Shown: positions 929-34,765 of the stretch, one piece after another
Layout of the letters: each line of letters begins with the position of its first letter
Numbering within the stretch: position 1 is the stretch's first letter
Assembly (NCBI GenBank): GCA_964525635.1
Contig: CAZGJX010000037.1
Coordinates: forward strand, 1-35,371
Direction: 5' to 3'
Source: an uncultured archaeon
Lineage (GTDB): Archaea > Asgardarchaeota > Lokiarchaeia > Sigyniarchaeales > SOKP01
Length of the DNA stretch: 35,371 nt
Translations under genes and position numbers: made by a program
The notes under the pieces: model-generated
What the model saw: only the letters and a program-made list of their open reading frames with translations
What the model was told of the DNA's origin: nothing
Databases searched by the model: none

Positions 929-1579
929 TTAAATATATATTGTGGATGTTTCATGCTTATACTTTATTTTTTTTATTTGTAATAGATGAAGCAAATAGAC
1001 AAATTTCTCATATATTTCTATTTGATCTTGAATACCATCAAAAATCTTATCAAAAGAACAAGGTAACTTATTTTCTATTTCTTTAAAAAACTCCAACATT
1101 TTTTCAGTAAATTTTTGAGTTGGTAATTCTAATATAAAATCTTCTTTAACATTATCTCGTCTTAAATGCTCAATTATAACAGGGGGTGCTTTATCCTGAG
1201 TTAATTTATTTTTACTAAATTCTAAGAAATCATAAGATAAAGATTGAAGACTGAATTCTTTTATCCAGCAATCATTAAATAGTTCTATAATATCAGCATC
1301 ACGAGGATTAGATTTTAAATATATATCAAATTTTTTCTCATCTTCTAGAGAATTTAATAAATCTTGGAATTCTTTAAATTTATCATCAAGAAGCTCGCAA
1401 GCTTCTATATATACTTTGGAATAATTATCTATATTTAAAATATTTAAAGTATTTTTTAATTCGTTAAAAATTGGTACTAATTCTAATTCCAATAATGAAA
1501 TTTTTCCATTTTTAACATCATCATAAATATTCTTTATTTTTTCTTTAATCTCATTTGATAATTCTTTGAATTCAATCAT
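929..1579 (-). CDS. scpA: Kleisin (ScpA/Nse4-like)
   Basis: N-terminal VKNGKISLLELELVPIFNE...EACELLDDK and C-terminal FDKIF...EIYEKFVYLLHLLQIKKIKY...IYI match the ScpA N-helical and C-terminal WH patterns. Abuts the smc stop codon. Confidence 0.75.
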   Translation of the reverse strand: MIEFKELSNEIKEKIKNIYDDVKNGKISLLELELVPIFNELKNTLNILNIDNYSKVYIEACELLDDKFKEFQDLLNSLEDEKKFDIYLKSNPRDADIIELFNDCWIKEFSLQSLSYDFLEFSKNKLTQDKAPPVIIEHLRRDNVKEDFILELPTQKFTEKMLEFFKEIENKLPCSFDKIFDGIQDQIEIYEKFVYLLHLLQIKKIKYKHETSTIYI

Positions 1580-4500
1580 TTATTTTTCTTTATTATTTAT
1601 TACTTTTGGATTAAAAACTGTAGAAATTTCATTTTCTCCTACTCTTGCAATACCTATTAATTTCTCTGCGAGTCTATATAATGCATTTGATGATTTTGGT
1701 AAAAACATAATCAATTGTATTGGATTTCTTTCTAAAGTTGATTTTATTAGTTCATAAGAGATTTCAGCATTTTTATCATCTAGAAACATAGAGGCTTCAT
1801 CAAACATACACAAAGGTGATGGATGCATTTCTTGTAATGAAAGAATTAAAGCAATTGCTACCATTGAAACTTGACCTCCACTTAAAGCGGTACAAGAAAG
1901 CAAAGGTTTATTTGAAGTTGATGCTTTAATATCCACACCAAGTTCTTCAAAATCTCCAATAAGGGTTAAATCACAATAAACATGTATATTTGTTTCATCA
2001 AATTTATTATTAATCTTTTCTGTTAATTTTGTCAATACATTCTGAAATTTATTGTAATAAGTTGTCTCTAATTCTTTCTCAGTTTTTATTGCTGCATTGA
2101 TATCTTTTTCCATATCTTCTTGATTTTTTGAAATTTTATTTAATGAAGACATAATATAATCTTTTTCAACTAATATAGATTCATCAACATCGTAATATTG
2201 GAGTATTTTTCTATCGATGGAAAAAAGATCTTCTTGAATCTCCTCGATAGGTCGAAGTTCAATCTTTTTCTCCTCGACTAAATCCCCAATTTCTGAATCA
2301 ATTCTCTCCAAATCCTCATTCTTTAAATTAAGTTCTTGGTTTATTTGATTTAAATTAATAGATTCTTGTTCTAATTTTAATTCTAATTCAACTCTTTTTT
2401 CATCTAAAATACTTTTTACTTCTAATTGTTGTTTTCTATTTTCTTTTTGATTTTTTATATTAGCTTCTATTTCAAGAATAAGATTTTCTACATTTTCCAA
2501 CTCTTTGTATATATCAAATGCATCTTTATCAGCATTTTGAAATTCTACTTTCTTTGATTCATGCTTTTCATTTAAAATTTCTAATTTATTATTGATTTTA
2601 TTTATATTTTGGTTAACTTCATTTATCATTTGTTTATTTTCTTCTAATTTTGAATCCCATCCTTTCTTATTTTCATTTAAATTAGCCAAAAGAAATGGAA
2701 TTTCTTTAATTCTTTCATTCCAATTGAAGAAATCGGGTTCTTGTTGTTTTTCAAGTTCCTCTATTTGGATCTTTAAACTATTAATTTCTTCTAGATCTCT
2801 AATATTAGATCTTACAATTTCCCCTTTCTTTTCATACAAATTATTTTTTTTTGTAGTAATTCTTCTTCTTTGATTGTAGTTATAATACAGATCATTAAAA
2901 ATCTCCTTCTTCTTATATAATTCTTTCTGTGTATTATCCAATTGAGATGCTTTAACTTTTAATTCAGAAATTTTAGTATTATAATTTTCAATTTCTTTTT
3001 CTAATTGATCTGCTTGTTCTTTTTGGGTTCCTGTACTTAATAAACCTTTTAATTTTTTAAGATAAGGAGTTTCATAGACATATTTATATGAAATTATTTG
3101 TTCTCCCTTTAGGGTTACACATTTACCTTTAAAATTATACTTTTTATAAATCTCTTTTCCCGTTCTATAATCATTTACTACTAAACAATTCTTAACCTTT
3201 GAATAAATTACTTTTTTTATATTTATATCATTTGTTTTAATTAAATCTGCTAGATAACCTAAAACTCCATCAGCTTCAAAATCCATTAATGGTTGGATAT
3301 TCTCTTTTTTTGGAACATAAATATGGCAATATGCATGATATTTATCTTTTAATCTTTTTAACAAATCTAAAGTTTCCCAATCCTTTGCAACAAAACTATA
3401 TAATAATTTCTCACCCAATATTGATTCAATTGCATAACTAAGACTATCATCATATTTTATATGATTAATTATAGGACCAATAACATCTAAACTACGTTTT
3501 TTAATATCATCTTTTAAAATATTGATCTCTGTTGGTAGAACTAATCTACGATTATTAAGGGAATTTTGTAAATGACGGAATTGATTTAATCCACTAGTTC
3601 TTTTAATCTCTAATCTTTTAATCTCTTCTTCCAAAGTGAATAATTCTGCTGTGACTTTATTAAGTTTAAAATCAAATTCATGTAATATATCTTTTGTAGG
3701 ATTTTCTAAAAACCATCTATTTTTTTCTAATTTGTGGTTTATATCTTTATAACTTTGAAATAATTGGTCTATCTGACTCTCAATATCCTTAATTAATAAC
3801 TCACTATCCTCTATCCTCTTCTTTAAATTTTCTCTTTCTGAAATTATTCCATTATATTCATCAAGAAAAACTTTATTTTCTTCAATCTTTTCCAATAGTT
3901 CCTTCTGTTCTTTAAATAAGTTCTCTATTTCTTCTTCTATTTTGTTCTTTTCAGAATTAATATAATTAATATCTGCTTGGATCTTTTCCTGTTGTTTATT
4001 ATGATTTTTTACTTGTTTTTTTAAATTCTTAATTTCATCAAATATATCATCTAGCTCTTGTTTTAATTGTATCTTTTCATTCTGCCATTTCTTGATTTTT
4101 TTTGTTATATCTTCTTTTTTATAGTTATTTTCACCTAATTCTTTAGAAAGATCATTTATAGTATCTTCAATATTATTAACCGTTAAGCTAATTTTTTGAA
4201 TTTCTTTAAAATTGATTTCTTGATTTTGCTTATTTTTATGAATTAAAGAATCAAGTTTTTTTACTTCTTCAGTTAAATCAACTATTTCTAATAGCAATTT
4301 TTGACGATTAGCCCATAATAATTCATCTTCAAGCTTGCTTTTTCTCTTTAATAATTCTTTTTTCTTTTCTAATCGTTCTAATTTAGGTTTAAGTGAATCC
4401 ATACTAGTGTTAAGTGAATTTTTTCGCGTTTTAAGAGAAATTAATTCATTATTCAAGTCTTGGATATCTCTTTTCTGCTGTAAAATTTCTTCTCTTAAAT

Positions 4501-5047
4501 CTCTCAATCCAATTCCATGTTCAAGAAAAGAACATAATTCATCTGGTTTTAATTCCTTTATTTGGTCAATATGCCCTTGACTAACAAATGCAAAATGATT
4601 ATCTGGATTATAGTTTAAACTAGATATGATCTCTTGAACTTGATTAGTCTTAACTTTCACAAAATCCTTTTCATTTTTCTTTTTTATAGAATAAAAAGGA
4701 GAATGATCCCTAATAACAGTACGTCTAATTTGATATAATTCCCCCCTCTTTTTAATAGTAACTTCTACCATAGCATGATCTTGACCATGTCTTATAAAGT
4801 CTGACCATTTTTGATACCTTAAATCACGTTCATTACTCCCTAATACAAATTTTAGAGCTTGAAAGATAGAGGTTTTACCTGACCAATTAGGTCCAAGAAC
4901 TATTATAAACTTTGAACTATTAAATTCCACTTCATCTCGTTTAAATGAGAGGAAATTTTCTAATATTACTTTAGTAATATGGACTTTATTTTTTATTGAA
5001 TAATCTTTATTATTATCAGTATTTTCTTCTTGAATTTGAACATTCAA
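1580..5047 (-). CDS. smc: SMC-family chromosome ATPase, Smc5/6-like
   Basis: Walker A GPNWSGKT, Q-loop FVSQG, long coiled coils, hinge (VIGPIINHIK...AIESILG...CVTLKG), signature LSGGQ, Walker B MFDE, switch QLIMFLPK. TTG start preceded by GAGG. Confidence 0.95.
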   Translation of the reverse strand: MNVQIQEENTDNNKDYSIKNKVHITKVILENFLSFKRDEVEFNSSKFIIVLGPNWSGKTSIFQALKFVLGSNERDLRYQKWSDFIRHGQDHAMVEVTIKKRGELYQIRRTVIRDHSPFYSIKKKNEKDFVKVKTNQVQEIISSLNYNPDNHFAFVSQGHIDQIKELKPDELCSFLEHGIGLRDLREEILQQKRDIQDLNNELISLKTRKNSLNTSMDSLKPKLERLEKKKELLKRKSKLEDELLWANRQKLLLEIVDLTEEVKKLDSLIHKNKQNQEINFKEIQKISLTVNNIEDTINDLSKELGENNYKKEDITKKIKKWQNEKIQLKQELDDIFDEIKNLKKQVKNHNKQQEKIQADINYINSEKNKIEEEIENLFKEQKELLEKIEENKVFLDEYNGIISERENLKKRIEDSELLIKDIESQIDQLFQSYKDINHKLEKNRWFLENPTKDILHEFDFKLNKVTAELFTLEEEIKRLEIKRTSGLNQFRHLQNSLNNRRLVLPTEINILKDDIKKRSLDVIGPIINHIKYDDSLSYAIESILGEKLLYSFVAKDWETLDLLKRLKDKYHAYCHIYVPKKENIQPLMDFEADGVLGYLADLIKTNDINIKKVIYSKVKNCLVVNDYRTGKEIYKKYNFKGKCVTLKGEQIISYKYVYETPYLKKLKGLLSTGTQKEQADQLEKEIENYNTKISELKVKASQLDNTQKELYKKKEIFNDLYYNYNQRRRITTKKNNLYEKKGEIVRSNIRDLEEINSLKIQIEELEKQQEPDFFNWNERIKEIPFLLANLNENKKGWDSKLEENKQMINEVNQNINKINNKLEILNEKHESKKVEFQNADKDAFDIYKELENVENLILEIEANIKNQKENRKQQLEVKSILDEKRVELELKLEQESINLNQINQELNLKNEDLERIDSEIGDLVEEKKIELRPIEEIQEDLFSIDRKILQYYDVDESILVEKDYIMSSLNKISKNQEDMEKDINAAIKTEKELETTYYNKFQNVLTKLTEKINNKFDETNIHVYCDLTLIGDFEELGVDIKASTSNKPLLSCTALSGGQVSMVAIALILSLQEMHPSPLCMFDEASMFLDDKNAEISYELIKSTLERNPIQLIMFLPKSSNALYRLAEKLIGIARVGENEISTVFNPKVINNKEK

Positions 5048-9940: not shown

Positions 9941-10398
9941 ATGAAATTAATTAGTAATGATTTTAAAAATAATGAATTAATGGATAAGAAATTCTCGTAT
10001 CGAGCAGAAAATTTATCACCTCACTTAGAATGGGAAGATTTCCCAGATGGAACAAAAAGCTTCGCCATTTCTTGTAATGATCCTGATGCTCCAGTAGGAG
10101 ATTGGGTACATTGGATCGTTATTAACATTCCTGCGAATATTAAAGAGATATACCAAGGAGGACCAGTTCCAGGAGAAGAATTAGAAAATGATTTTGGGAA
10201 AAAAGGATATGGAGGCCCTTCAATTTTCGAGAAATCCTCATTATAGGGAGACCTCCTAGTGGAACCCATAGATATTTTTTTAAAATCTACGCTCTTGATG
10301 CAAATAAATTGGAAGATGTGAAGAAGAGTAATTTTAGTGAAAAAATAAAGGGACATTCAATTGAATCTGCTGAATTAATTGGATTATATAAGAAATAA
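9941..10398 (+). CDS. YbhB/YbcL (PEBP/Raf kinase inhibitor-like) protein, join(9941..10221,10251..10398), 142 aa after splicing
   Basis: Exon 1 has SPHLEW and DPDAP...WVHW. Removing 10222-10250 restores [22 protein letters not shown] and an open frame to TAA at 10396-10398. Confidence 0.85.
10222..10250 (+). other. Putative 29-nt bulge-helix-bulge (archaeal-type) intron in an mRNA
   Basis: Exon helix GGAGG(10211-15)/CCTCC(10252-56), 4-bp central helix CCCT(10216-19)/AGGG(10245-48), 3-nt bulges TCA(10220-22) and AGA(10249-51). Confidence 0.8.
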
Positions 10399-19267: not shown

Positions 19268-20530
19268 TTAATTTACTTTTGGAATTAAAAGAATAAAATT
19301 ACTTCCTTTTGAAAAATCATCTTTAACAACATTTTCAACCCATATTTTACTGTTATATTTTTCTAAAATAATATTTATTAAAGATAATCCCAATCCTAAT
19401 CCTCCATGATCTCTTTGTGTTTTATCTGTTCTCTCAAGAAAATTTTTTCTTTTAGATCATCCTTGATACCTATACCGTTATCTAAAAATTGAAATTTATA
19501 CATGTCTTTTTCTTCGATTTTTACCTCTGTAATTTTAATATTAATTTCTATTGTATTTTGTTTATTATGAAGTATAGCATTTATCAATAGATTTTCAAAG
19601 ATATCTATAATAAGTTCATTAGCAAGTATTTCAACTTTCCTTAACTCATGTTTAAGATTAATTTGAATCGATTTCAGTTTAAAAGTATTTTTAATATAAT
19701 CTATTACTTTTATGAGAATGGGAAGAACATCAATTTTATTAAATCCCATTTTTTCACTGATTTGAGATAATTTCCTTATATTTGAAACTAAATCTTGTCC
19801 CTCTCTCAATTTGTTCTTTTAAAATAGTTAAAATTGATTTAATTTTTTCATTTTTATTTATTTCCCCAATAAACATTGGTAATAATTCTGTAGAACTTTT
19901 AATGTTTTGAAGTATATTATTTATGTCATGTGAGAATAAATCTTTTAGAAATTCTATTCTTTTATATGCATTATTCGACTCATTTACTGCTTTTTTTATA
20001 CTCTGAGCAGATATATCCATTATAACTCTTATAAGAATAAATAAAATCAACGCAGGTATATTTGGAATTATTTCTGTAATAGTTCCAAAGAAAATCATTA
20101 ATATATCAATTAATAAAGCAAAAATCAATCCTGAATAAGGTTTTATTGTAATCGAACCAATAATAATTGGAATGATAAAATATACTATACTCCGTCCATC
20201 TAATAATTCATGTGGAGAATCTGCAAGAATTATTAATAAGGTTATTTGGATTAAGAATGTGTATGTAGCTATGATTCTTGAGAAATAATTATTTATTATA
20301 AAAACAAAAATTCCAATTATTATAAATATTAAAGATCCTATAGGTACACTAAAGAAAGCTTCTTCAGATTCCTTAGAAACTTCTTTTGGTAATAAAGGAT
20401 TGAAAATAAGGAAAATAATAAAAGCGAGAACGATAAAACCTACTATCAAATAATTTAATATCTTTTGCTTCCTTAAATCTTCAGAATCTCCTTGACATCT
20501 CTTGAAAAATTTCTCTCTGAATGATGCCAT
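19268..20530 (-). pseudogene. Membrane sensor histidine kinase with two frameshifts
   Basis: TM region plus H-box FSHDINN (19754..20530), N and G1 boxes NLLINA and DNGIGI (19396..19809), and G2 box HGGLGLGLSL...WVEN...GSNFILLIP in a further segment ending at TAA 19268. Confidence 0.85.
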
Positions 20531-20674: not shown

Positions 20675-21709
20675 TTAGAATCTTCTTTTTTTTTTTATAT
20701 ATGCTTGAAAGGGAGTTTTTGGTTCTAAAGAGATCCATTCTTTATTAAAATCTAAATTTGAAAGAGATCTTAATAAATCAAAACTAATCCATCGAGAGGC
20801 TTGAGGATATCTTTTATTTTCCCATAATCCAAATTTACCTTGTTCCTTTCTAATAAAAGTAATGAAATCAGCTATTCTCTCATCATTGATACTTGCACCC
20901 ACTCTCCAACATAAATTTAAAAGATGAGCAATATCAAATTTAGCCATAAAAGTTATCCATCCAAAAGATTTTTCTAGTCCAAGTAGTCTGGCAATAGTGA
21001 ATCCAAGGGTGTTTCTTAATTTTATATTAGTTCCTAAGATTAAATCTAAAGCCCGTTTAGCTTCGTTACTACTTCTTAATTTTGGGTGATATGCAAAACA
21101 TGATAGTACTGTCGTAGTGTTTGACCGACAACCAAATTTAGAGTGAACCAAATGCCTATATCCTGCAATTCCTCCATAAATTCCTGCAGAAATTCCTACT
21201 GGCCATGCTCCATCATCAAGTTTCTGTTCTAATAACCAATCAAATGCTCTTTCAACTCTCTTATCTGTTGAATAACCTGTCATAAGGAGACCCAAAAGTG
21301 GAATTGCCGTTTGAACAGGCATCATTTGATAACTATTTTCTTCATCCACTAATATATCTCGTCTTGGCATTTGCCAAGAGCCATCATCCAGTTGTTTAGT
21401 AAACATAAATTCTGCTGCCTTTCTAATGGGAATAAATGAAGAATCAAAACCTAAAAAACCAAGTCTCTGGAGTACTACCGATGTAATATGAACACTATTC
21501 TTTGATTCTATTCTACTTATACTAAATGAATCCCAAGAGCCATTTGGTTTTTGTAACTTTATTAATTCTTTAACTAAAGGATCTTGTACTCGAAGTTTTA
21601 ACAGTTCAATCACTTCAGGATCTTCTTTTGGACGATTTAAAAGCTCCTTTAAAATAAGGTATCGCAAACATGGAGAAGGGTCTATTAATAAAAGAGGAAT
21701 CCACGTCAT
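20675..21709 (-). CDS. Prenyltransferase/squalene-cyclase-repeat (QW) alpha-alpha toroid protein
   Basis: Repeats QKPNGSW, QLDDGSW, KLDDGAW and EQGKFGLW; no DxDD motif; ATGA overlap with the upstream gene. Confidence 0.75.
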   Translation of the reverse strand: MTWIPLLLIDPSPCLRYLILKELLNRPKEDPEVIELLKLRVQDPLVKELIKLQKPNGSWDSFSISRIESKNSVHITSVVLQRLGFLGFDSSFIPIRKAAEFMFTKQLDDGSWQMPRRDILVDEENSYQMMPVQTAIPLLGLLMTGYSTDKRVERAFDWLLEQKLDDGAWPVGISAGIYGGIAGYRHLVHSKFGCRSNTTTVLSCFAYHPKLRSSNEAKRALDLILGTNIKLRNTLGFTIARLLGLEKSFGWITFMAKFDIAHLLNLCWRVGASINDERIADFITFIRKEQGKFGLWENKRYPQASRWISFDLLRSLSNLDFNKEWISLEPKTPFQAYIKKKRRF

Positions 21710-24700
21710 AATAATACCTCCAAAACTTCTTTAATATATTTTGCTGTTGGTGTCAAACCTTTCGCAATATGCTCTGGTGGGCCTTTAGCAATAACTCTAC
21801 CACCCTCTGGACCTGCTCCGGGTCCCATCTCAATCAACCAATCACAAGCAGCTAATATATATGGGTGATGTTCTATAATTACTACTGTATGACCATTTTC
21901 AACTAGCAAATGTAAAACATCAATTAATTTTGAAACATCTTCTAAGTGTTGACCAATAGTTGGTTCGTCTAAAATATATAATGTATTTTTCTTTGTTTTC
22001 TTACCTAACTCTTTTACTATTTTAAGTCTCTGAGCTTCCCCACCTGAAAGTGTTCTTGCAGGTTGATTTAATTGTAAATATCCTAGTCCCACTTTTATAG
22101 CATTTTTTAACTTATTTGCTATAGTGACATTATCTTTAAATAAATCAAATACTTTCTTTATAGATAAATTATTGAGTTCTGAATATGAAATATCTTTATA
22201 ATAAATCTTATGGGCTTTCGCTTGTAGTCCGGAACCTTTACATACATCACATATCTCTATAATATCAGGTAAGAATTTCATATCTATTTTGGTGTATCCT
22301 TTACCATTGCAAATGGAACATTTTTTAGTTAAATCCTTCTCTGATAAATTTAGGAATTTACAATCCTCGGTTTCAGCGTATATTTTTACAAAATTTTGTT
22401 CTAAGCCAAGAAACTTTAGTGGACTTCCTATTTTTTTTTTTGTCTGATCAATGATAATTGTTTGAGGCAAAGTGCCCTCAATTTTATCATATATTCCAGG
22501 TTTTATGGGTTCTCTTGATACAGAAGTAGTATGATTCTTAGGTATAAGAGCTCTCCCCAAAGTATCAATTAATAAAGTACTCTTTCCTGAGCCAGATATA
22601 CCACAGATACCTACTATACACCCATGAGGTATCTTAACTATACCTCCCTTAAGATTATGTTCATATGCCCCATGAATTTTAAGCCATTTTTTTTGTGTTC
22701 TTCGTTTGCTTGGAATATTAAACTTTCTTTTTCCATTCAACCATTCTGCAGTAATGGTATTTGTTTTTTTTATCTCTTCTATAGATCCTTTGGCTACTAT
22801 TTCTCCACCATTTAATCCTGCTTCTGGCCCCATATCTATGATATATTCTGCTGATTCAATAAATAAAAGATCATGTTCAATTATTATTATTGTATTTCCT
22901 TTATCACGCAATTCTCTTAAAATATTCAATAAAGATTGAAGTTCAGAGGGGTGTAAGCCTCTAGAGGGCTCATCTAGTAATATAGTTAATGAAGATAAAT
23001 TACTCCCAATTAAACCTGCTAGTCTGATTCTTTGAGCTTCTCCAGCGGATAATGTTTCTACAACTCGATTTAGATGTGTATATCCTAAACCAATTCTTAC
23101 TAAAAATTCTAAACGATTAAAGATAATCTTGAAACTATTTATGATAAAATCATGTTGAAATTGTTCAGTAGATTGCTCCCTAAATTTTTTATATAATTCA
23201 TTTAAAGGTGTTTCAGCTATTTCATGGATATTATAACCAAGAAAAGAGAATTTAAGATATTGAGGCCGGAAACCCGTACCATTACATTCGCTACAGAGCA
23301 TTGTGTCAGTAAAAGTTCCGCCAGTATCCCAATCCCTTAACCATTGTTCATAAAATCCTTTAAAAATAAGATCTTTTGTATATCTTTGACCTTTTTTATT
23401 CTCAATGTGACATGTTAAGGGTTTTTCAGCTCCAAAGAGAAATGCTTTTTTAGCTTCTTCTGACATTTCATTCCATGGAGTTTCAAATTGATTGAATCCA
23501 TATCGATCAGCAAGAGCTTGTATAAAATAATAACCTACATTATAAGGCTTACATAGATATCCTTTAGGGAAAAATCCTGGAGAATACATTGCTCCCTTAC
23601 ACAAAGGTTTTTCAGGATGGATAATGAGCTTATCAGGATTAGGCACTTGATTAGATCCAATACCATTACATTTTAGACAAGCGGCAGAATAATTTGATGA
23701 GATAAAATGTCTTGGTTTTGCAATTGGTAAAAAAACATTGCATTTTTCACAATACCATTTTTCCTTCCTAACCATATGTTGTTTACATGTTGGGCATAAT
23801 ACATCTCCAATATATGAAAATAGATTTGCTAAATGAAGATTAATATCTGTAATTCTGCCAATGGTAATACGTAAATTAAAAAACCATCCTAGCCTTTTTT
23901 TTTCTGAGGATATTAATGCGGTAATCCCAAGTCCTGATATGTTACTAACCAGAGCTTCTGACCTTTCTTTTGTACTTTGTCTTTCATACATTGATAAAGT
24001 TTCAAAATAGCGCCTTCTTGCTTCAGCTTCTAAAGTATCAATTATTAGGCTTGATTTTCCTGAACCAGAGACTCCAGTAACCACAATTAATTTTCCTTTT
24101 GGAATTTTTGTACTAATATTTTTTAAATTATGAACATGAGCATTTTCAATCACAATATATGATTTTTTTTTTTTTCTTTCCTTCTTTAAAGTTGATGTTG
24201 GTTTAATAGAAGCATCCTCTTTAAGAGCCTTACTAGTAAAAGATCTATTATTTTTCATCAATCCTTCTAAAGTACCTTGATATACTAATTCACCTCCTTT
24301 AGGACCAGAACCTGGACCAAGGTCAATGATCCAGTCTGCAGCTCTTATCATATCAATATTATGTTCTATAATGACGATAGTTGCTCCCGATTCAATTAGT
24401 TTTTTTAGAATTGTTAATAATCCAGCTAGGTCTTTAGGATGTAAACCTGTTGAAGGTTCATCCAGAATAAAAATTTGATTTTCTAATGTATTTCTTCCGA
24501 GATATTTTGAAAGTTTAATTCGTTGGGCCTCACCGCCCGAAAGTGTGGGGGATGGTTGACCAAGAGATATATATCCTAAACCAATATCATTAAATGCTTT
24601 TAGCATTTTTTTTATAATCATAAGATCTTTGGCTGTCAATCTATTTTCATTCTCAAAAATCTTGGTAACTTCATGAATTGGCAAATCATATAACTCTGCT

Positions 24701-26580
24701 ATGGAAAGTAATCTATCTCCACAATTTACTTTTTCTAATAGAACTTCTTCAGAAAATCGTTGACCTCCACAATCAGCACATGTAATCCAATTAGATGGTA
24801 AATATCGCATCTTAATTTCTAAGGCACCCATTCCATTACATGTTGGGCATTGGCCTTCTGAAGTGTTAAAGGAAAAATAAGTTGCTTTAAAACGAGTATT
24901 CTTCTCATATAGTTTACGGATAATCTCAGCTATTTTTGTATATGTTGCAGGATTAGAACGTGGATTCTTTCCTATTGGGCTCTGATCCACTAACACTGGA
25001 TTAAGCTTTGGACCGATTAATTCATCACATCCAATAGGTTTTTTTTGCTTAATACTATTATATAATATTTCTTCTATCAATGTACTTTTCCCAGAACCAG
25101 AAATCCCTGTTATTATATTAAATCGATTTAAAGCAATTTTAACATCAATATTCTTGAGATTATGTTTATTTGCACCTTTAATTGACAAGAATTTCTGAGG
25201 GGCTAGTTTTTTTTGTGGTAATTTAATTGTTTCTTCAAAGCTAAAAAATTTACCCGTTGAAGTGTCTGCCTTCCATAGTTCAGCAGGAGTTCCTGTAAAA
25301 ATGATTTCTCCACCTTCATTACCAGCACTTGGACCGATATCAATAACTTGATCAGCCATTATTGTTGCTAACCTATCATGTTCAATATAAATCACAGGAC
25401 CTGCTAATTTATTGAGTTTTGGAAGTAGCCTTGCCACATCTGCTGGATGTTGACCAATCGTAGGTTCATCTAAAATATGAGTAATATCTTCTAATTCACT
25501 AAGTAGGGTTATAGCTAATCGAACTCTTTGAGATTCTCCTCTTGAAAGTGTAGGTGAAATACGGTCTAAGGTCAAATATTTAAGACCTACAGCATCTAAA
25601 GCAGCTAATCGTCTTTTAATTTCATGTATTAATCTATCTGAAGCGGGGAGGTCATCTTTCGAGAATAGTTCGAGAAGTTCTCCCACATTCATTTCTAAAA
25701 ATTTAGGAAATAATAATCCAGACCACGTAACATTTGATGCAAGAGGGTGAAATCCCGTATTATTGCATTCTATACAACCTTTACCTTTACAGTATGGACA
25801 ATTCCTTTTGAAATGAGTCGGTTCTAATTCTCCAAACCATCCACCACAATTAGTACAAACCGGTACTCTTGCTACGATTATTTCCTGATTTTCAGTCTTG
25901 ACTAAATAAGAATTAGCTCCTAGTGCTGCCCCTGTCTGAAGAATATTATAGAGTTCATTTACAGGAGTATTACTATTGATCTTATTTAGTGTAATTTGAA
26001 TATTATGAGGTTTATTCCAAGTTAATGGATTAGAATCCCACTCCTTTCCATCAACGATAATGTTGTTTTGACCAAATTCTTTAATTAAACTCTCTAATAA
26101 GGTCATATGACTCCCTTTAACATTCTGTACTAAGAGCACTGATATAGTCAGAGTGCTATTTCTGGCAAATCCTTCAATCTTGGAAATAATTTGTTCTTCC
26201 TTCATAAAATATAAATTATTACCGCAAATATGGCACCTTCTCTTACCATATCTTGCATAAAGTAATTTTAATAATGGAATCAGTCCCATAGCTGAAGCTA
26301 AAATGGAATTTGGATTACGATTAAGCAAATTTTGACCTAATGCGATTGTAGGACCTATTCCAGTAATTGAACGTACCTTAGCGGGAGCTATATTGATTTC
26401 TTCTTTATTAACTGAAAAAGCTTCTAAGAAACGTCTACGTGCTTCCTTATATAATATATCAAAAATCAGTGAGGACTTACCAGAACCAGATACACCTGTA
26501 ACCACAGTTAATCCATCATAGATGTCTACATCAATGTTTTTTAAATTATGTTCACTAGCTCCACGTATTTTAATTTCCAT
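21706..26580 (-). CDS. uvrA: Tandem-fused double UvrA-like ATPase (four ABC domains)
   Basis: Four Walker A motifs G(V/I)SGSGKS; signatures LSRGE, LSGGE, LSAGE, LSGGE; four LDEP motifs; Zn-finger CxxC pairs. The likely start is ATG at 26580 after GAGG (the track gives 26586). Confidence 0.9.
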   Translation of the reverse strand: MEIKIRGASEHNLKNIDVDIYDGLTVVTGVSGSGKSSLIFDILYKEARRRFLEAFSVNKEEINIAPAKVRSITGIGPTIALGQNLLNRNPNSILASAMGLIPLLKLLYARYGKRRCHICGNNLYFMKEEQIISKIEGFARNSTLTISVLLVQNVKGSHMTLLESLIKEFGQNNIIVDGKEWDSNPLTWNKPHNIQITLNKINSNTPVNELYNILQTGAALGANSYLVKTENQEIIVARVPVCTNCGGWFGELEPTHFKRNCPYCKGKGCIECNNTGFHPLASNVTWSGLLFPKFLEMNVGELLELFSKDDLPASDRLIHEIKRRLAALDAVGLKYLTLDRISPTLSRGESQRVRLAITLLSELEDITHILDEPTIGQHPADVARLLPKLNKLAGPVIYIEHDRLATIMADQVIDIGPSAGNEGGEIIFTGTPAELWKADTSTGKFFSFEETIKLPQKKLAPQKFLSIKGANKHNLKNIDVKIALNRFNIITGISGSGKSTLIEEILYNSIKQKKPIGCDELIGPKLNPVLVDQSPIGKNPRSNPATYTKIAEIIRKLYEKNTRFKATYFSFNTSEGQCPTCNGMGALEIKMRYLPSNWITCADCGGQRFSEEVLLEKVNCGDRLLSIAELYDLPIHEVTKIFENENRLTAKDLMIIKKMLKAFNDIGLGYISLGQPSPTLSGGEAQRIKLSKYLGRNTLENQIFILDEPSTGLHPKDLAGLLTILKKLIESGATIVIIEHNIDMIRAADWIIDLGPGSGPKGGELVYQGTLEGLMKNNRSFTSKALKEDASIKPTSTLKKERKKKKSYIVIENAHVHNLKNISTKIPKGKLIVVTGVSGSGKSSLIIDTLEAEARRRYFETLSMYERQSTKERSEALVSNISGLGITALISSEKKRLGWFFNLRITIGRITDINLHLANLFSYIGDVLCPTCKQHMVRKEKWYCEKCNVFLPIAKPRHFISSNYSAACLKCNGIGSNQVPNPDKLIIHPEKPLCKGAMYSPGFFPKGYLCKPYNVGYYFIQALADRYGFNQFETPWNEMSEEAKKAFLFGAEKPLTCHIENKKGQRYTKDLIFKGFYEQWLRDWDTGGTFTDTMLCSECNGTGFRPQYLKFSFLGYNIHEIAETPLNELYKKFREQSTEQFQHDFIINSFKIIFNRLEFLVRIGLGYTHLNRVVETLSAGEAQRIRLAGLIGSNLSSLTILLDEPSRGLHPSELQSLLNILRELRDKGNTIIIIEHDLLFIESAEYIIDMGPEAGLNGGEIVAKGSIEEIKKTNTITAEWLNGKRKFNIPSKRRTQKKWLKIHGAYEHNLKGGIVKIPHGCIVGICGISGSGKSTLLIDTLGRALIPKNHTTSVSREPIKPGIYDKIEGTLPQTIIIDQTKKKIGSPLKFLGLEQNFVKIYAETEDCKFLNLSEKDLTKKCSICNGKGYTKIDMKFLPDIIEICDVCKGSGLQAKAHKIYYKDISYSELNNLSIKKVFDLFKDNVTIANKLKNAIKVGLGYLQLNQPARTLSGGEAQRLKIVKELGKKTKKNTLYILDEPTIGQHLEDVSKLIDVLHLLVENGHTVVIIEHHPYILAACDWLIEMGPGAGPEGGRVIAKGPPEHIAKGLTPTAKYIKEVLEVLL

Positions 26581-26605
26581 ACACAATCCTCATGTTTATC
26601 AAAAA

Positions 26606-29116
26606 TTATTTTAAATATGGACCCGTTTTTGAATTTTTATTATTTTTCATCTCTTCTGGTGTACCTATAAAGATTATTTCTCCTCCTTTAGGACCTCCTC
26701 CTGGCCCTAATTCAATAATATAATCCATAAATGAAAGTATATCGGGATCATGTTCAATAATCAACACACTATTTCCTTCTTGGACTAGACGATCTAATAA
26801 TTCCATTAATTTTAAAGAATCATAGAAAGATAATCCTACAGTTGGCTCGTCTAGAATATAAAGTGAATTTCCTTTCCTTATTTTTCCTAATTCTTTTGCT
26901 AATTTAATACGTTGAGCTTCTCCTCCACTCAGAGTTGGAGCGGGTTGTCCTAACTCTATATATCCCATACCAATCTCATCAAGTATTTTGAGAACATTTG
27001 AAATATTAGTTTGAGATTTAAACAATTCTAATGATTCACTCACGGTCATATTAAGAACATCTACAATTGATTTATTTTTATATTTAACTTCCAATATTTC
27101 TGCTTTGTATCTCTTGCCTTTACATTCTTTACATTGTATTGTAAAACTACTTAGAAATGAAATTTGTAAATCTTGTTCACCACTTCCTTTACACATTGGG
27201 CATCTACCGTTATCAGAATTATAAGAAAAATGACCTGGTTTATATTTTCTGTTTTTCGCTTCTTCTGTTTTAGCAAATAAATTCCTTATTTTATCCCATA
27301 TACCTATATATGAACAAGGTGTAGATGTTTTAACTCTAGAAATTGGTCGTTGATTCACAACGACAATTCCTTCTAAATTTTTCCATCCTTCAATAATTCC
27401 AGAATATTCTAATAATTCATCACCATTTTCTCCATTGTCGCTATTTTCTCCCTTTTTTTTTTGAGTTTTACTGATATATCTCTTGAAAAAGGGTGTTAAT
27501 AATGGTACAAGAGTATCTTGTATTAAAGAACTCTTTCCAGAACCTGAAACTCCTGCAATTCCTACCATCATATCAAGGGGAATTTTTACATTAATATTTT
27601 TAAGGTTATTTGTTTTAGCATTGTAGATTTTTAAAAAATTCCCATTTTCTTCATTAAATTTACGATTTTTATTGACTTTTTGTGGTAGAGTAATTCTATT
27701 TTCTAGATAATTGCCTGTATTTGAGTCATTATTTTTCCTTATTCCATCTAAATTACCTTGATAAACAATTCTTCCCCCATTTATTCCAGCTCCAGGTCCG
27801 ATTTCAATTATTTCATCTGCGATTTCAATAAATCTTTTATCATGTTCAACAACAATAATACTATTACCTAATTTTTTTAGTTGCTCTAGAATTTTAATTA
27901 AAGAATCTTTTTCACATTCATGTAAGCTCATACTTGGTTCATCTAATACGTATATGAGAGAATCAAGTCCACTTTCTAAATGTATCATAAGAGATAATCT
28001 TTGAAGTTCACCACCACTTAAAGTAGGTAAAGATCTATGAAGATGTAAATATGAGAGCCCTACATTCATCATACGTTTTAACTGTTCAAGTATACTTTCT
28101 TTCATTGCCTTCCCTTGAATAGAATTAATACCTTCATTGTTAAGATTCTCTATATGTTTAATTAATTCTTCAATTGTCATCATTGATAACTCTCCAATAT
28201 GTTTATTTTGAATTTTGATATCTCTTGCTTGTTCATTAATTCTATATCCATGACATTCATCACATTTTTTCATAGTCATAAAATTTTTAGCTATTTTATG
28301 TCTTCTATAGTCACTTTTACCCTCTGTCCAAGCTCTTTTCATATGAGGTATAATACCTTCAAACTCTCTTTCTAATTCCCCTGAGAAATTTTTTGATTCC
28401 CATTGGAACTTAAATTTTTTTCCTTCACCACCATAAAGGAATAATTGCTTTATTTCTTCAGGTAGATCTTTATATGGTGTATTTATATCAAAGTCATAAA
28501 ATCTGGGTAATTGCTCAACAAATCTTATCTGATCTGCAAAAACTGCGGATCCTGCTTTTGTTATTTGAATTAAATTTTTGTTATAATCCTTTACAATCAT
28601 TTCCTCCGTATAATGCATAGTATATCCTCTTCCTTTGCAATTTAAACACATTCCACTTAGTTCATTGAATGAGAAATACTTAATTTGAAGTCTATCCACC
28701 TTCATACCACATAAATCACATTCAAGATTATAATTAACAGGTTCTTTACAAATTGGACATAATAGAATTCCTTCTGTTGCATATAGCATTCTAAGTAATC
28801 CATATATCCCTGTCTTAGTTCCTACTGTTGAACGAGGATTAAATACTCTGGTTGTTCTTTGTTCTACAGCTACTGTAGGGCTTAAACCTTCAATAATATC
28901 AAAAGGTTTTTCATCTTCAAATTTAGGAGGAAATCCTATTGATTGTAAATAACGATTCATTCCTTCATCAAAAATAATATCAAATGCTAAACTTGATTTA
29001 CCAGAGCCTGAGACTCCAGTAATTAGAATTAATTTTTTCTTTGGTATATTTACATTTACATCTTTTAAATTATGTATTCTTGCTCCAATTATCTTTATTT
29101 CATTCACAACATTCAC
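26606..29116 (-). CDS. uvrA: UvrA-like ATPase lacking the UvrB-binding domain (class II / UvrA2-type)
   Basis: GARIHNLK, two GVSGSGKSS, two LSGGE; only CPICKEPVNYNLECDLC where the UvrB-binding domain normally lies. Confidence 0.9.
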   Translation of the reverse strand: MNVVNEIKIIGARIHNLKDVNVNIPKKKLILITGVSGSGKSSLAFDIIFDEGMNRYLQSIGFPPKFEDEKPFDIIEGLSPTVAVEQRTTRVFNPRSTVGTKTGIYGLLRMLYATEGILLCPICKEPVNYNLECDLCGMKVDRLQIKYFSFNELSGMCLNCKGRGYTMHYTEEMIVKDYNKNLIQITKAGSAVFADQIRFVEQLPRFYDFDINTPYKDLPEEIKQLFLYGGEGKKFKFQWESKNFSGELEREFEGIIPHMKRAWTEGKSDYRRHKIAKNFMTMKKCDECHGYRINEQARDIKIQNKHIGELSMMTIEELIKHIENLNNEGINSIQGKAMKESILEQLKRMMNVGLSYLHLHRSLPTLSGGELQRLSLMIHLESGLDSLIYVLDEPSMSLHECEKDSLIKILEQLKKLGNSIIVVEHDKRFIEIADEIIEIGPGAGINGGRIVYQGNLDGIRKNNDSNTGNYLENRITLPQKVNKNRKFNEENGNFLKIYNAKTNNLKNINVKIPLDMMVGIAGVSGSGKSSLIQDTLVPLLTPFFKRYISKTQKKKGENSDNGENGDELLEYSGIIEGWKNLEGIVVVNQRPISRVKTSTPCSYIGIWDKIRNLFAKTEEAKNRKYKPGHFSYNSDNGRCPMCKGSGEQDLQISFLSSFTIQCKECKGKRYKAEILEVKYKNKSIVDVLNMTVSESLELFKSQTNISNVLKILDEIGMGYIELGQPAPTLSGGEAQRIKLAKELGKIRKGNSLYILDEPTVGLSFYDSLKLMELLDRLVQEGNSVLIIEHDPDILSFMDYIIELGPGGGPKGGEIIFIGTPEEMKNNKNSKTGPYLK

Positions 29117-29802: not shown

Positions 29803-30972
29803 TTATATTGATTCTTTTATTATTTCCCAAGCTTGGCTTTCTAATTCATACCATTCTTGGATTGTTTTATTAAGTTCTGGTATCTTATCCTTCCAAATAT
29901 TTATTTCATCTTTTACTCCTTCTTCTACTTTTTCAACTTCAAGATCAATCTTTTTAAGTTGCTTACGATAGTCTTTCTCTCCCTTCTCTTGAATCTCATT
30001 AGTCCTAAGAAATAATTCACGCATTTTTTTCATATTAGGTAAATCATCTGGTAGCAATAGTTTTCCTATAATGTGAATAACTTCAATTATTTTTTTAAAA
30101 TTTTCAGACGCTTTTAATAAACCATCATTATTAAGTAATAATCCTGCCTCTTTAAGAAAGTCCTTATATAAATTTCTAAACATAGCACCCCCTGTACCTC
30201 CAGTTTCTATATAAATAAAATTCATAACTAATCCAAATGATAAATCATTTTTATTGAAATCTTGCACCCATGATGGAAGCATTGTACGCCATTTTTGAAA
30301 CCCTGAAAGGCCCATGTTCTTAATAGGTGGATTATACATAAAATTAAGATTTTCTTTTATAGCAGAAGGAATAATATCCTTAATTGGTTTGATCTTTTTC
30401 GGAATTAAAAGTTCCACTAATTTATTTTTAGCTGGAAAAGGAGCAAATTTACTATTCCTTGCAGCCTTTAATTCTTCATAAGTTATAATAAAAGGATTTG
30501 CGAAACGATCTGAAATATATGCTTCATCCTTTTCTTCATCAATACCATATGTAACAAAAGTATGTCCTCCAAAATGTCCTGCTCCCTCATTTGGAATTTG
30601 TACACCTTCACCAAAAAAGAATGGGCAGTATGCAAAATCAACAAATGTGATTGCTGGTTGACCTCTTTCTAATATATTTATTAGATTATTATGAGCAGTA
30701 TTTATGGAAGCCGTTTCGGTAACTTTAACACTACCACCTAATCTATTAAGTATTCTTTCAAATACTTCCGTCTTCTTAACTCCAAGTCCTAAGGTCATGG
30801 GAAATGGTAGTCGTTTCATATAAAAATAGAAAAAGCCTAAACCTGAACATAATCCTAAAAGCATTGGCTCTGAAATGTTTATATTATAATGAGCTAATAC
30901 TTTTCTTAAACTAGATAATTGACAGTTCGAACCCGTCATATGCTTAAAATTATCAATTACTAATCTTACCAT
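29803..30972 (-). CDS. BtrH_N/DUF4872-like papain-fold Cys protein, paralog 2
   Basis: GSNCQLSSLR (Cys), SEPMLLGLCSGLGF, HFGGHTFVTYGID...SD and ETGGTGGAMFRNLY. Confidence 0.8.
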   Translation of the reverse strand: MVRLVIDNFKHMTGSNCQLSSLRKVLAHYNINISEPMLLGLCSGLGFFYFYMKRLPFPMTLGLGVKKTEVFERILNRLGGSVKVTETASINTAHNNLINILERGQPAITFVDFAYCPFFFGEGVQIPNEGAGHFGGHTFVTYGIDEEKDEAYISDRFANPFIITYEELKAARNSKFAPFPAKNKLVELLIPKKIKPIKDIIPSAIKENLNFMYNPPIKNMGLSGFQKWRTMLPSWVQDFNKNDLSFGLVMNFIYIETGGTGGAMFRNLYKDFLKEAGLLLNNDGLLKASENFKKIIEVIHIIGKLLLPDDLPNMKKMRELFLRTNEIQEKGEKDYRKQLKKIDLEVEKVEEGVKDEINIWKDKIPELNKTIQEWYELESQAWEIIKESI

Positions 30973-30986
30973 TTTTTATCACTCTC

Positions 30987-32135
30987 TTAATTTTTTATTT
31001 TTGATAATTTACTAAACAGCTTTTCTTCTTCATTAACAATATAGAAAGCCATATTTTGTAATTCCTCGATTGATATATGATTTATACAATCTTTATCATA
31101 TTCATCAGCAGCACTTTTGAGAATTTCTGCTATATTAGTCCAATTATCAGCAGATGTTTTAATCATTGGAATTACTTCTTCGATAATTTTAAAATCTTCA
31201 CTTGTCCATGCTCTAGGACCTTCTTTAAGTTCTGGAAGTATTAATAATTCTTCAAGGAATATTCTATAAAGATTGCGGAAAGCAGCTCCGCCCGTACCCC
31301 ATGTTTCTATGTATCCATATATCAACTCAAATGTAGCTTTAGATACTGGTATTTTACTATTATTAAAGGGACTTTTAACAATTCCTTGTAAGTCATCTCT
31401 CCAATTTTTTATTGAATTTGCAAATCGCTTCAATCCTTGAATACCTACATTGTTCATTGAAGGCCTTAGGATATGATTTACAACTTGTTGTATAGCAACT
31501 TTTATCCCTGCTGCTAAAGGGGGATGTTTTCCATCTGGTCGCCGAATCATAGAATATTGAGAATTTTCTGGGTGTAGATATATTGGACCTTCTTTAGATC
31601 CTCTTGCTTTTTTTAAACTTTCGATATTTACTTCTCGAAAATCTCTAAATTCAGTATCTCCTACTAAAACAATACCTTTCTCCTCATCATATCCTGCTAA
31701 TGTAATTGCATGTCCCCCAAAATGGATTTCTTCATTTTCATCTTCATTTATGTATGGTAGATAACCTAAATCAACTTGGAGAATCAATGGAATATCTTGT
31801 TCTATTAAGATTTTAGCTTCTTTCCATGCCTTATCAACACTGGAAAAAGACTGTTTCCTTAATGTAATACCCAATAATCGACAGGCTAATGAATTAGGGG
31901 TGATTGTACCTTGTTTTCCACCTATAAAAATAGGTGTATCAATTACCTCATTTTCTGTATTGGGTATACTTATTGATTTATCAAAATATACAAATCCTAA
32001 AGTTGCATCAAGACCAAAAGCCATAGCTTCAGACATAGGAAAACCATAAAATTCAAACATATCTCTTAAGGCAGAGGATTCACAATGAACTCCCGATTTA
32101 TGAACAAAATTATTTATTATATGCTTCTGGGTCAA
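30987..32135 (-). CDS. BtrH_N/DUF4872-like papain-fold Cys protein, paralog 1
   Basis: GVHCESSALR, SEAMAFGL, HFGGHAITLAGYD...GD and ETWGTGGAAFRNLY; TTG start with GGAGG. Confidence 0.82.
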   Translation of the reverse strand: MTQKHIINNFVHKSGVHCESSALRDMFEFYGFPMSEAMAFGLDATLGFVYFDKSISIPNTENEVIDTPIFIGGKQGTITPNSLACRLLGITLRKQSFSSVDKAWKEAKILIEQDIPLILQVDLGYLPYINEDENEEIHFGGHAITLAGYDEEKGIVLVGDTEFRDFREVNIESLKKARGSKEGPIYLHPENSQYSMIRRPDGKHPPLAAGIKVAIQQVVNHILRPSMNNVGIQGLKRFANSIKNWRDDLQGIVKSPFNNSKIPVSKATFELIYGYIETWGTGGAAFRNLYRIFLEELLILPELKEGPRAWTSEDFKIIEEVIPMIKTSADNWTNIAEILKSAADEYDKDCINHISIEELQNMAFYIVNEEEKLFSKLSKIKN

Positions 32136-32992: not shown

Positions 32993-34765
32993 ATGCTGAA
33001 TAGACCACCCCAAAATGCAACTTCTGGGGAAAAAATATTTTTTAGAAGACTTGAGACTTTTTTATCAAAAAATGATAATATAATTGGATATGTTGAGCCT
33101 TCGTTAGGAGGACATCGACCAGATTTCATATTATTATCATCTTTTTTTGGAGTCATTGTTGTAGAAATAAAAGATTATGATACTACAAATATTTTAGAAA
33201 TTAGAGAAACAGGACAATGGAAATATTTTAAAAATAATAAAGAAGCCTTTATTGGAAATCCTTTTGATCAGCTCTATCAGTATTGGAGAATAATAAAGGA
33301 CAGAATCGGTTTTTGTCACTATCCAAATCATATTAACATACCTATAATTCAAATTGCAGTTTTTGCCCAAATCTCTAAAAATGATTCTATTGCTAAAGAA
33401 ATACGAAGATTATCGCCAGAGAAAATATTTCTGTGTTTTAAAGAAGATATTTCAAATAATAAGGGCTTTGAAGAATATCTTAAAGATGTTTTACCATTAG
33501 ATTTTAAATTATCCTCTGAATTTTTTCAACTTTTACGAGGAAATCTTTTTCCTATGTGCCGTCTTCCCACTTTAAAACAAGCAGATTTGACCAAATTTTA
33601 TAAATCAGAAGATAAAGTACAATTGTTAGATCGAGAACAAGAAAAGCTTGCTCTCGAAATAGGAGAAGGACATAGATTAATCTTTGGAGTTGCAGGAAGT
33701 GGAAAAACCATTCTTCTAATTTCCAGAGCTAGATTTCTAGCAACTCGACACCCTAATTGGAGAATTCTAATAATATGTTATAATAAATTACTCAGAGATC
33801 TTATTTATCAATTAATTAAACCTCAAAATTATAGTTGTGATATAACAATAAACACTTTCCATGGGTGGATTAGAAATTATATTATAAGTGCGAATAATAA
33901 TTTTTGGCAACTTTATAAAGAAGCTCAACATAGAGCAGAAAATAAAGGAAAATTAACAGAATTTTTCCATGAAGTTGTTCCAAAATTATTTTTACATATG
34001 TTGGAAGATATAGGAGATAATAAAATCCATTATGACGCTATTTTAATAGATGAGGCTCAAGATTTTGCACAAGAGTGGTTTAAAGGGATTGTTCAAGTTT
34101 TGAATCCTTCAACAAATTCATTATTAATTACATGTGATGGAATTCAAGGGATTTATGCTAGAAAAAGGTTTACATGGTCAAGTGTTGGAATTGAAGCAAG
34201 AGGAAGAGTTAAACGCTTTGAAAAATCTTATAGAAATCCAATAGAAATAGGGATAATTGCCCAGAAAATCTTACCTACGAGTCTTAAAAGTTTAATAGGA
34301 CAATTTGATGAATTTCTTCCCACAAAAGAATTTTTAGGAAATCATGGATTGGTAGAATTAATAGTTTCTAATACTAGAGAAGAAGAATACGAAAAACTTG
34401 CAATAAAAATCAATCAATTATTAAAACATCCATATACAATATTATTACTTTTTAGACGTAATATGGTTAAATGTAGTTATGATCATCCATTTTTCAAATA
34501 TCTGAAAAAATTAAATTTAGAATGGAACAATTTAGAAAAATTTAATCATAATATTCCTGGATTGTTAATTGGAACTATACATGGAACAAAAGGATTAGAG
34601 TTTGATACAATTATTATTCCAGAAATTGATACCTATAAAACAGATAAAGATCGCCAATTGCTTTATGTAGGGATAACTCGTTCTCGAAAAAAATTAATTT
34701 TAAGTGCTAATCAGTCAAATGGTAATTCTGACTTTATAAACACAATAAAAGCACTTCAAACCTAG
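32993..34765 (+). CDS. NERD nuclease domain fused to an SF1 (UvrD-like) helicase
   Basis: PDFILL...VVEIKD nuclease motif, GVAGSGKT, IDEAQD, TIHGTKGLEFD and LYVGITRS. Confidence 0.9.
   Translation: MLNRPPQNATSGEKIFFRRLETFLSKNDNIIGYVEPSLGGHRPDFILLSSFFGVIVVEIKDYDTTNILEIRETGQWKYFKNNKEAFIGNPFDQLYQYWRIIKDRIGFCHYPNHINIPIIQIAVFAQISKNDSIAKEIRRLSPEKIFLCFKEDISNNKGFEEYLKDVLPLDFKLSSEFFQLLRGNLFPMCRLPTLKQADLTKFYKSEDKVQLLDREQEKLALEIGEGHRLIFGVAGSGKTILLISRARFLATRHPNWRILIICYNKLLRDLIYQLIKPQNYSCDITINTFHGWIRNYIISANNNFWQLYKEAQHRAENKGKLTEFFHEVVPKLFLHMLEDIGDNKIHYDAILIDEAQDFAQEWFKGIVQVLNPSTNSLLITCDGIQGIYARKRFTWSSVGIEARGRVKRFEKSYRNPIEIGIIAQKILPTSLKSLIGQFDEFLPTKEFLGNHGLVELIVSNTREEEYEKLAIKINQLLKHPYTILLLFRRNMVKCSYDHPFFKYLKKLNLEWNNLEKFNHNIPGLLIGTIHGTKGLEFDTIIIPEIDTYKTDKDRQLLYVGITRSRKKLILSANQSNGNSDFINTIKALQT

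Follow-up and report, generated by a model that had tools for sequence, protein, structure and literature searches.

The gene for a protein of the YbhB/YbcL (PEBP) family in the 35,371-nt stretch of DNA analysed here (the window) is interrupted by 29 nucleotides, which shift the reading frame and bring a TAG into the conserved GYGGPxPP motif. This raises the question of whether the gene has been inactivated or whether the insert is removed from its mRNA. As described below, the insert is very probably an intron of the tRNA type in a functional protein gene, with the splicing endonuclease EndA cutting in both bulges of a fold of the bulge-helix-bulge (BHB) type and the ligase RtcB joining the exons. 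The host genome (4.45 Mb, 27% G+C, 100%-complete) is that of a member of Promethearchaeota: a genome of the same genus was deposited as Promethearchaeota archaeon Zod_Metabat.578, and the named YbhB homologues come from Promethearchaeota/Lokiarchaeia. This agrees with the probable Asgard host proposed in an earlier note, which had been made from the letters of the window.

The anatomy of the locus is summarized in the table. The sequence at 10211-10256 is as that note had described it, with the insert and its TAG in the GYGGPxPP motif and with all pairs and bulges of the BHB present (GGAGG/CCUCC, CCCU/AGGG, UCA and AGA, AU/AU and GAG/CUC). Without splicing, the frame that begins with the ATG at 9941 ends at the TAG after 101 aa. 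Removal of 10222-10250 gives a 142-aa ORF that ends with the TAA at 10396-10398, restores the motif of the YbhB family and has no other lesion, just as had been claimed. The predicted join 10221/10251 reads GGCCCTTC followed by ACCTCCTAGT. The two exons match contiguous halves of the Pfam PBP profile, and these are the sole PBP matches in the genome; the spliced product carries the PF01161 domain with its DPDAP, HW and GYGGPxPP...HRY motifs. Intact 142-aa homologues are 70-85% identical to it.

Table. Features of the ybhB locus (positions in the window) and further host genes with BHB inserts (contig:positions); a slash within a motif marks the join.
Feature	Position	Strand	Remark
ybhB (YbhB/YbcL, PEBP family) gene including insert	9941-10398	+	Sole PEBP gene of the host genome
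Exon 1	9941..10221	+	Codons 1-93 and nt 1-2 of codon 94 (Ser); PF01161 profile 2-84, E 4.6e-23; TIGR00481
Putative BHB intron, 29 nt	10222..10250	+	Frame-shifting; in-frame TAG 10244-10246; homologous insert at same site in 8 other loci
Exon 2	10251..10398	+	Last nt of codon 94, then codons 95-142 and TAA; PF01161 profile 85-135, E 7.4e-9
Exon-exon helix, 5' strand GGAGG	10211..10215	+	Pairs with 10252-10256; paired in 9/9 orthologues
Central helix, 5' strand CCCT (exon)	10216..10219	+	4 bp with 10245-10248
5' bulge TCA, 3 nt	10220..10222	+	Predicted cut after 10221, by BHB rule (PMC2738675)
Intron hairpin	10223..10244	+	22 nt; imperfect stem, AU/AU pairs, GAG/CTC closing 5-nt loop
Central helix, 3' strand AGGG (intron)	10245..10248	+	Pairs with CCCT
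3' bulge AGA, 3 nt	10249..10251	+	Predicted cut after 10250, by BHB rule
Exon-exon helix, 3' strand CCTCC	10252..10256	+	Pairs with GGAGG
aIF2-gamma	C142:4667-4695 (L085)		Join GHVDHG/KT; 29 nt
CTP synthase (pyrG)	C17:44839-44869		
RpoB N-terminus (rpoB)	C41:87-118		
RNase HII (rnhB)	C4:30164-30193		Join DEAG/RGP
EF-2	C151:5048-5079 (L118)		Join GHIDHG/KT
RadA (radA)	C44:13663-13693		
Phosphofructokinase (pfk)	C22:16745-16776		Join GGG/DCPG
ThiF/E1 enzyme	C178:567-596		Join GVGAL/G
CinA-like protein	C26:35462-35491		
Thioredoxin	C1:45712-45743		Join WCGPC/K
MoxR	C1:63071-63101		

In the predicted fold, the central helix of 4 bp (CCCT/AGGG) has a 3-nt bulge on each of its two strands, located 3' of the helix, and is flanked by an exon-exon helix of 5 bp and by an intron helix whose stem is imperfect in the window. 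Cleavage behind the second nucleotide of either bulge would give back a functional reading frame. We note that in the free MFE structure (-12.9 kcal/mol, vs -11.3 for the BHB-constrained one) the inner helix is shifted by one base, so that a register with a 2-nt 5' bulge is preferred by 1.6 kcal/mol. Removal of 10223-10251 leads to an identical protein product; therefore, the exact register rests on the BHB rule and not on the protein. When the insert was shuffled with the exons fixed (200,000 shuffles), the 4-bp central helix arose in 0.28% of cases, and together with two inner pairs in 0.045%. Rfam gave no match within the window. A group I or group II self-splicing intron was rejected: the ribozyme core of these takes up hundreds of bases, whereas the insert has only 29 nt and lacks such a match.

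Comparison with relatives bears directly on the function of the interrupted gene. Exon 1 was matched at E <= 1e-30 in 44 of the 135 genomes of the family, many of which are incomplete. Three of these 44, all from the genus of the window, have an open frame of 103-104 codons, and in the others it is at least 143 codons long. A protein search gave more products of 100-104 aa, which end right after GYGGP[SA], and their contigs were taken into the comparison. The ortholog comparison proposed in the earlier note thus came out in its favor: in all nine loci (the window and 8 others) a 29-nt insert follows the second base of the codon after GGP, in the same phase, and its removal leaves an intact ORF with GGP[SA]PPSG-H and no second lesion. 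The nine inserts are homologous and non-identical. Among the intron-bearing orthologues, excluding L076 (which has an indel in exon 1), the mean pN/pS was 0.27 for exon 1 and 0.31 for exon 2 at a pS of about 0.58, and the p-distance of the insert was 0.23 vs this pS. Judged from these values, exon 2 and the insert are both under selection; in other words, the part of ybhB downstream of the stop is seen from its codons to be under purifying selection at the protein level.

The paired positions of the fold show correlated changes. In the nine-row alignment, 86.9% of the BHB cells are paired, vs 36-58% in slid registers, and five BHB pairs have double changes, a number that none of 500 shuffles reached; these figures are descriptive and are not p-values, since the window supplied the structure and the rows are related to one another. 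In the intron hairpin, 76% of the cells are paired, and three pairs have double changes. An A-U pair of the exon helix became G-C in L076 via two synonymous changes, and the first pair of the central helix became A-U in L075. This first pair is C-G in five orthologues, A-U in one and an A.G mismatch in three. As a result, the central helix is paired at 4/4 positions in six of the nine and at 3/4 in L005, L007, and L048, whose sequences place them with the relaxed BHB motif, a form common in cbf5 introns (PMC2738675). Furthermore, the two synonymous third codon positions opposite each other in the exon helix form Watson-Crick partners in 9/9 intron-bearing genes vs 15/39 intronless ones.

An intronless relative, P0087, known from a metagenome DNA assembly, is 89% identical in nucleotides and 85% in amino acids to the spliced window gene. 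At the site of the insert it reads CCT TCA CCT, which is the predicted join. Among the public proteins searched for the spliced form, none of 142 aa exceeded 87% identity to a spliced product of the nine loci, and P0087 was the closest to that of the window; the public databases carry ybhB as fragments of 98-104 aa. Another candidate, P0080, was rejected as a case of the intron, being chimeric or an unrelated truncation.

A ribosome that shifts frame within the 29 nt, or hops over them, would make splicing unnecessary. This recoding would find a hairpin at the site, and the frame of exon 2 is open through the insert in six of the nine loci, the window included. However, in L007, L072, and L073 the third codon of the insert in that frame is TGA, and no conserved slippery heptamer was seen in the nine-row alignment. 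A frameshift would add about 10 residues within the invariant GP-x-PP motif, and a hop between matched codons (CCT to CCT) would lose two conserved residues, although codon 94 tracks the Ser/Ala of the family. Recoding also leaves the exon-intron pairing with its BHB geometry unexplained, and we regard it as very improbable.

The earlier note had suggested that splicing may also apply to other genes of such genomes that look like frameshifted pseudogenes, and had proposed a genome-wide scan for BHB junctions. The scan gave a divided answer. In its strict form, which required a canonical BHB whose removal joins two coding frames, the ybhB locus came first by energy, and there were 7 candidates at a constrained energy <= -3 kcal/mol vs 0, 1, 4, 1, and 0 in five decoy sets; the enrichment is modest. 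In its looser form it gave 26 hits vs 12-23 in decoys, that is, no enrichment. This means that the BHB shape alone is not diagnostic and that the list of genes rests on homology. A join was accepted only when it restored a family motif or a contiguous profile, and the list is a lower bound. At least 11 further host genes with BHB inserts of 29-32 nt were obtained (Table), in line with the suggestion. Each insert breaks the frame or holds a stop, and the profile matches are contiguous over the join or start directly after it. One candidate (C203:961-989) without a family match was dropped, and the AMP-binding (acs-like) host genes that were checked are uninterrupted.

Two of the split genes, those for aIF2-gamma and CTP synthase, are single-copy in the host genome. 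Of 30 relatives compared for aIF2-gamma, 8 have the insert at this site, 11 are intronless and 11 went unscored by the search pattern. These inserts have diverged, and in one relative the central helix ATGG/CCAT has changed to ACGG/CCGT, a compensated change. Loss of the intact aIF2-gamma P-loop would probably be lethal to a cell, so such inserts must be bypassed or removed. ybhB itself is dispensable within the family, as its presence in 44 of 135 genomes indicates, and the argument from essentiality therefore comes only via the other split genes. Within the GTPase P-loop (GH[VI]DHG/KT), aIF2-gamma and EF-2 have their inserts at one and the same codon position and in the same exon context, with different intron sequences; this suggests a site preference or repeated targeting. 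In an EF-1alpha-like translation GTPase gene at C50:17295-18020 (-) of the host genome, the TIGR03680 match falls into two pieces inside one open frame of 471 codons.

Several other genes of the window may be described here. On the minus strand at 19396-20530, an ORF of 258 aa overlaps one of 137 aa that carries HATPase_c; together they resemble a single frameshifted histidine-kinase gene. They could be joined by a weak BHB candidate of 34 nt (19762-19795), which may be due to chance. Two UvrA-like genes lie side by side at 21706-29116 (-), one of 836 aa and the other, which seems to be a double UvrA, of 1626 aa, and a NERD-UvrD helicase gene at 32993-34765 adjoins this pair. Tandem BtrH_N/DUF4872 genes lie behind a PadR regulator at 29803-32135 (-). 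At 929-5047 (-), an SMC-like gene (1155 aa) precedes two others, one of 216 aa that matches OapB weakly and one of 180 aa that matches nothing in Pfam; the three possibly form an SMC operon.

The host encodes the enzymes that such splicing would require, namely an EndA with intact catalytic residues and an RNA ligase. There are two EndA paralogues (PF01974), on contigs C18 and C105. The first is closest to the catalytic alpha subunit of Aeropyrum pernix (E 4e-37); counted along the alignment, its Y143, H151, and K182 align with the triad Y125/H133/K164 of that enzyme, and its K60 with K44 of the loop associated with broad substrate specificity (PMC3241643). The second is without the catalytic His motif and, from its sequence, looks like a structural subunit. 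The two paralogues, one of them without this motif, are consistent with the (alpha-beta)2 form of EndA reported for most Asgard genomes (bioRxiv 10.64898/2026.10.13.758758). RtcB is encoded on contig C119 and is intact (E 3e-166). Many tRNA genes of the host bear introns. Two large tRNA gene arrays, C54:19098-26273 (22 genes) and C146:5782-7574 (5 genes), are mostly intron-less, vs the scattered, intron-rich tRNA genes elsewhere, and are possibly a mobile element or contamination. A tRNA-Sec gene is found at C50:9907-9999, as expected for Lokiarchaeia. Together with the orthologues, the selection, the covariation and the further split genes, the enzyme genes lend support to the proposal of the earlier note that mRNA splicing of the EndA/RtcB type occurs in this lineage.

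Another enzyme might splice the insert, or the insert might be removed from the DNA in part of the population. Close relatives without the intron do exist as DNA, and the A.G mismatch in three orthologues departs from the canonical motif. Against a different enzyme, the geometry is exactly that of the EndA rule in ybhB and about ten other genes. As for the DNA, the stretch is present in salt-marsh metagenomes: runs X1 and X3 contain it entirely in one contig with zero differences (X1 being possibly the window's own source and X3 a different sample), and X2 and X4 cover the insert piecewise, again with zero differences. The joined form of ybhB was absent from the contigs of these four runs, from which rare variants drop out. 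A search of sequencing runs for the stretch listed no RNA run, a result that has no bearing on its expression. The insert has neither terminal repeats nor a further copy in the host genome. Both versions of this explanation are thus highly unlikely, and cleavage by EndA with ligation by RtcB is preferred.

Inactivation of ybhB by an insertion whose BHB shape is incidental is still less credible, and we give it hardly any weight. A frameshift plus a stop codon is what usually marks a pseudogene, and ybhB is patchy in the family. However, nine copies have remained without a second lesion despite a synonymous divergence of about 58%, and the pN/pS of exon 2 largely refutes inactivation. The insert is conserved above neutral sites and has compensatory changes, and inserts of the same type occur in single-copy essential genes. 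Although the genome is a metagenome assembly, an artefact of assembly or sequencing, which the earlier note had named as a possible refutation, can be excluded for practical purposes, since independent runs are identical and diverged homologous inserts occur in 8 other assemblies from other studies.

From the sequence anatomy, its conservation, the selection on both exons, the covariation and the enzyme genes, all of them shown here, we infer transcription, cleavage, ligation and a protein product of ybhB. The ybhB pre-mRNA would fold locally into the BHB, half of which consists of exon bases. The two-subunit EndA would cut after the second base of each bulge, and RtcB would ligate the exons into an mRNA for the full 142-aa YbhB/PEBP protein. 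The 29-mer would be released, probably as a circle, by analogy with known archaeal introns. mRNA that escapes splicing would give the truncated 101-aa product. The ybhB intron would then be one of a dozen or more coding-gene introns of 29-32 nt in this genome.

The history of the intron was examined on a DNA tree of 37 ybhB coding sequences, with the intron removed and unrooted. The intron-bearing genes are not monophyletic on this tree (AU p = 1.5e-5). Six changes of intron presence are seen, at least four of them forced by well-supported branches, and the protein tree agrees. For both L071 and L075, there is a sister gene that lacks the intron. The intron of L071 differs from that of the window at 10% of sites, and synonymous sites differ at about 50%. 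Tandem ybhB paralogues at L003 and L015 (genomes G025 and G006) are both intronless, and in G001 an intronless second paralogue lies beside the intron-bearing copy. The intron may have been gained once, long ago, and then lost precisely several times, or it may have passed from allele to allele; the unrooted tree would accommodate both. A test for co-conversion of flanking codons in pairs of intron-bearing and intronless sister genes gave 5/10 vs 18/100 and 3/10 vs 24/100, a comparison confounded by selection on pairing. It is conceivable, and in our estimate rather doubtful, that these micro-introns are a mobile class still spreading between alleles and lineages through coding genes of Lokiarchaeia, so that EndA/RtcB splicing gates the expression of many genes, among them essential ones, and could be used for a global control like that of XBP1. 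One old gain with repeated precise losses and selection on the intron accounts equally well for the patchy pattern in ybhB.

A regulatory role, which the earlier note had considered possible, found no support. The patchy gene, the intronless sisters among close relatives and the like introns in unrelated housekeeping genes fit tolerated introns better than regulation. Most likely, the ybhB intron is spliced constitutively and is tolerated, rather than being a switch. This would fit introns that are tolerated wherever an exon can supply half of a BHB.

In archaea, a BHB intron in pre-mRNA is known from cbf5, the pseudouridine synthase gene of Desulfurococcales and Sulfolobales (Watanabe 2002; Yoshinari 2006; Yokobori 2009, PMC2738675). 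Introns in further archaeal coding genes had been predicted and were unconfirmed as of 2009 (PMC2738675), and a 2020 paper gave cbf5 as the only additional BHB intron reported, beside its own case in a 5' UTR (PMC7714728). The ybhB insert resembles the cbf5 intron in being short, in lying within a conserved coding motif with a BHB or relaxed BHB at the junctions, in its predicted cut after the second bulge base, in the hetero-oligomeric EndA of the host, and in gain or loss among relatives. It differs in the gene and the phylum, and in that inserts of one size class (29-32 nt) occur within a single genome in 12 or more coding genes, including single-copy genes for translation and nucleotide synthesis. 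Splicing of cbf5 was demonstrated on cDNA, whereas the case for ybhB is comparative. The non-canonical BHB introns of Asgard archaea described in a 2026 preprint, which deals with tRNA genes only (bioRxiv 10.64898/2026.10.13.758758), share the motif, the (alpha-beta)2 EndA background, repeated gains and a similarly small size; in ybhB, by contrast, the intron would lie in an mRNA, with an exon helix made of codon positions. In the HVO_1309 mRNA of Haloferax volcanii, a BHB is processed by EndA, as it would be in ybhB, but the site is in the 5' UTR and the reading frame is uninterrupted (PMC7714728). Our search of mostly open-access literature found no report of BHB introns in Asgard coding genes. 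The eukaryotic XBP1/HAC1 mRNA is cut by IRE1 at two stem-loops under the control of stress and is ligated by tRNA ligase. The ybhB intron would be similar in being a short, frame-shifting, non-spliceosomal mRNA intron joined by a tRNA ligase, and different in its predicted cutting by EndA at a BHB rather than by IRE1 at stem-loops. A role of RtcB in XBP1 splicing is described in PMC8718801.

These comparisons indicate that the new part would be the use of a known splicing route, that of crenarchaeal cbf5 pre-mRNA, in many coding genes of a lineage neighbouring the eukaryotes. Splicing of archaeal mRNA is on record for essentially a single coding gene, cbf5 (PMC2738675, PMC7714728). On the splicing model, the annotations of Lokiarchaeia contain truncated or missing proteins, with aIF2-gamma, CTP synthase and RpoB affected besides YbhB. 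If splicing of the inserts takes place, intron-bearing protein genes exist genome-wide in the archaeal lineage nearest to eukaryotes and are handled by tRNA-splicing enzymes that eukaryotes still use for the ligation of XBP1/HAC1, and this would bear on how interrupted genes were tolerated before the spliceosome.
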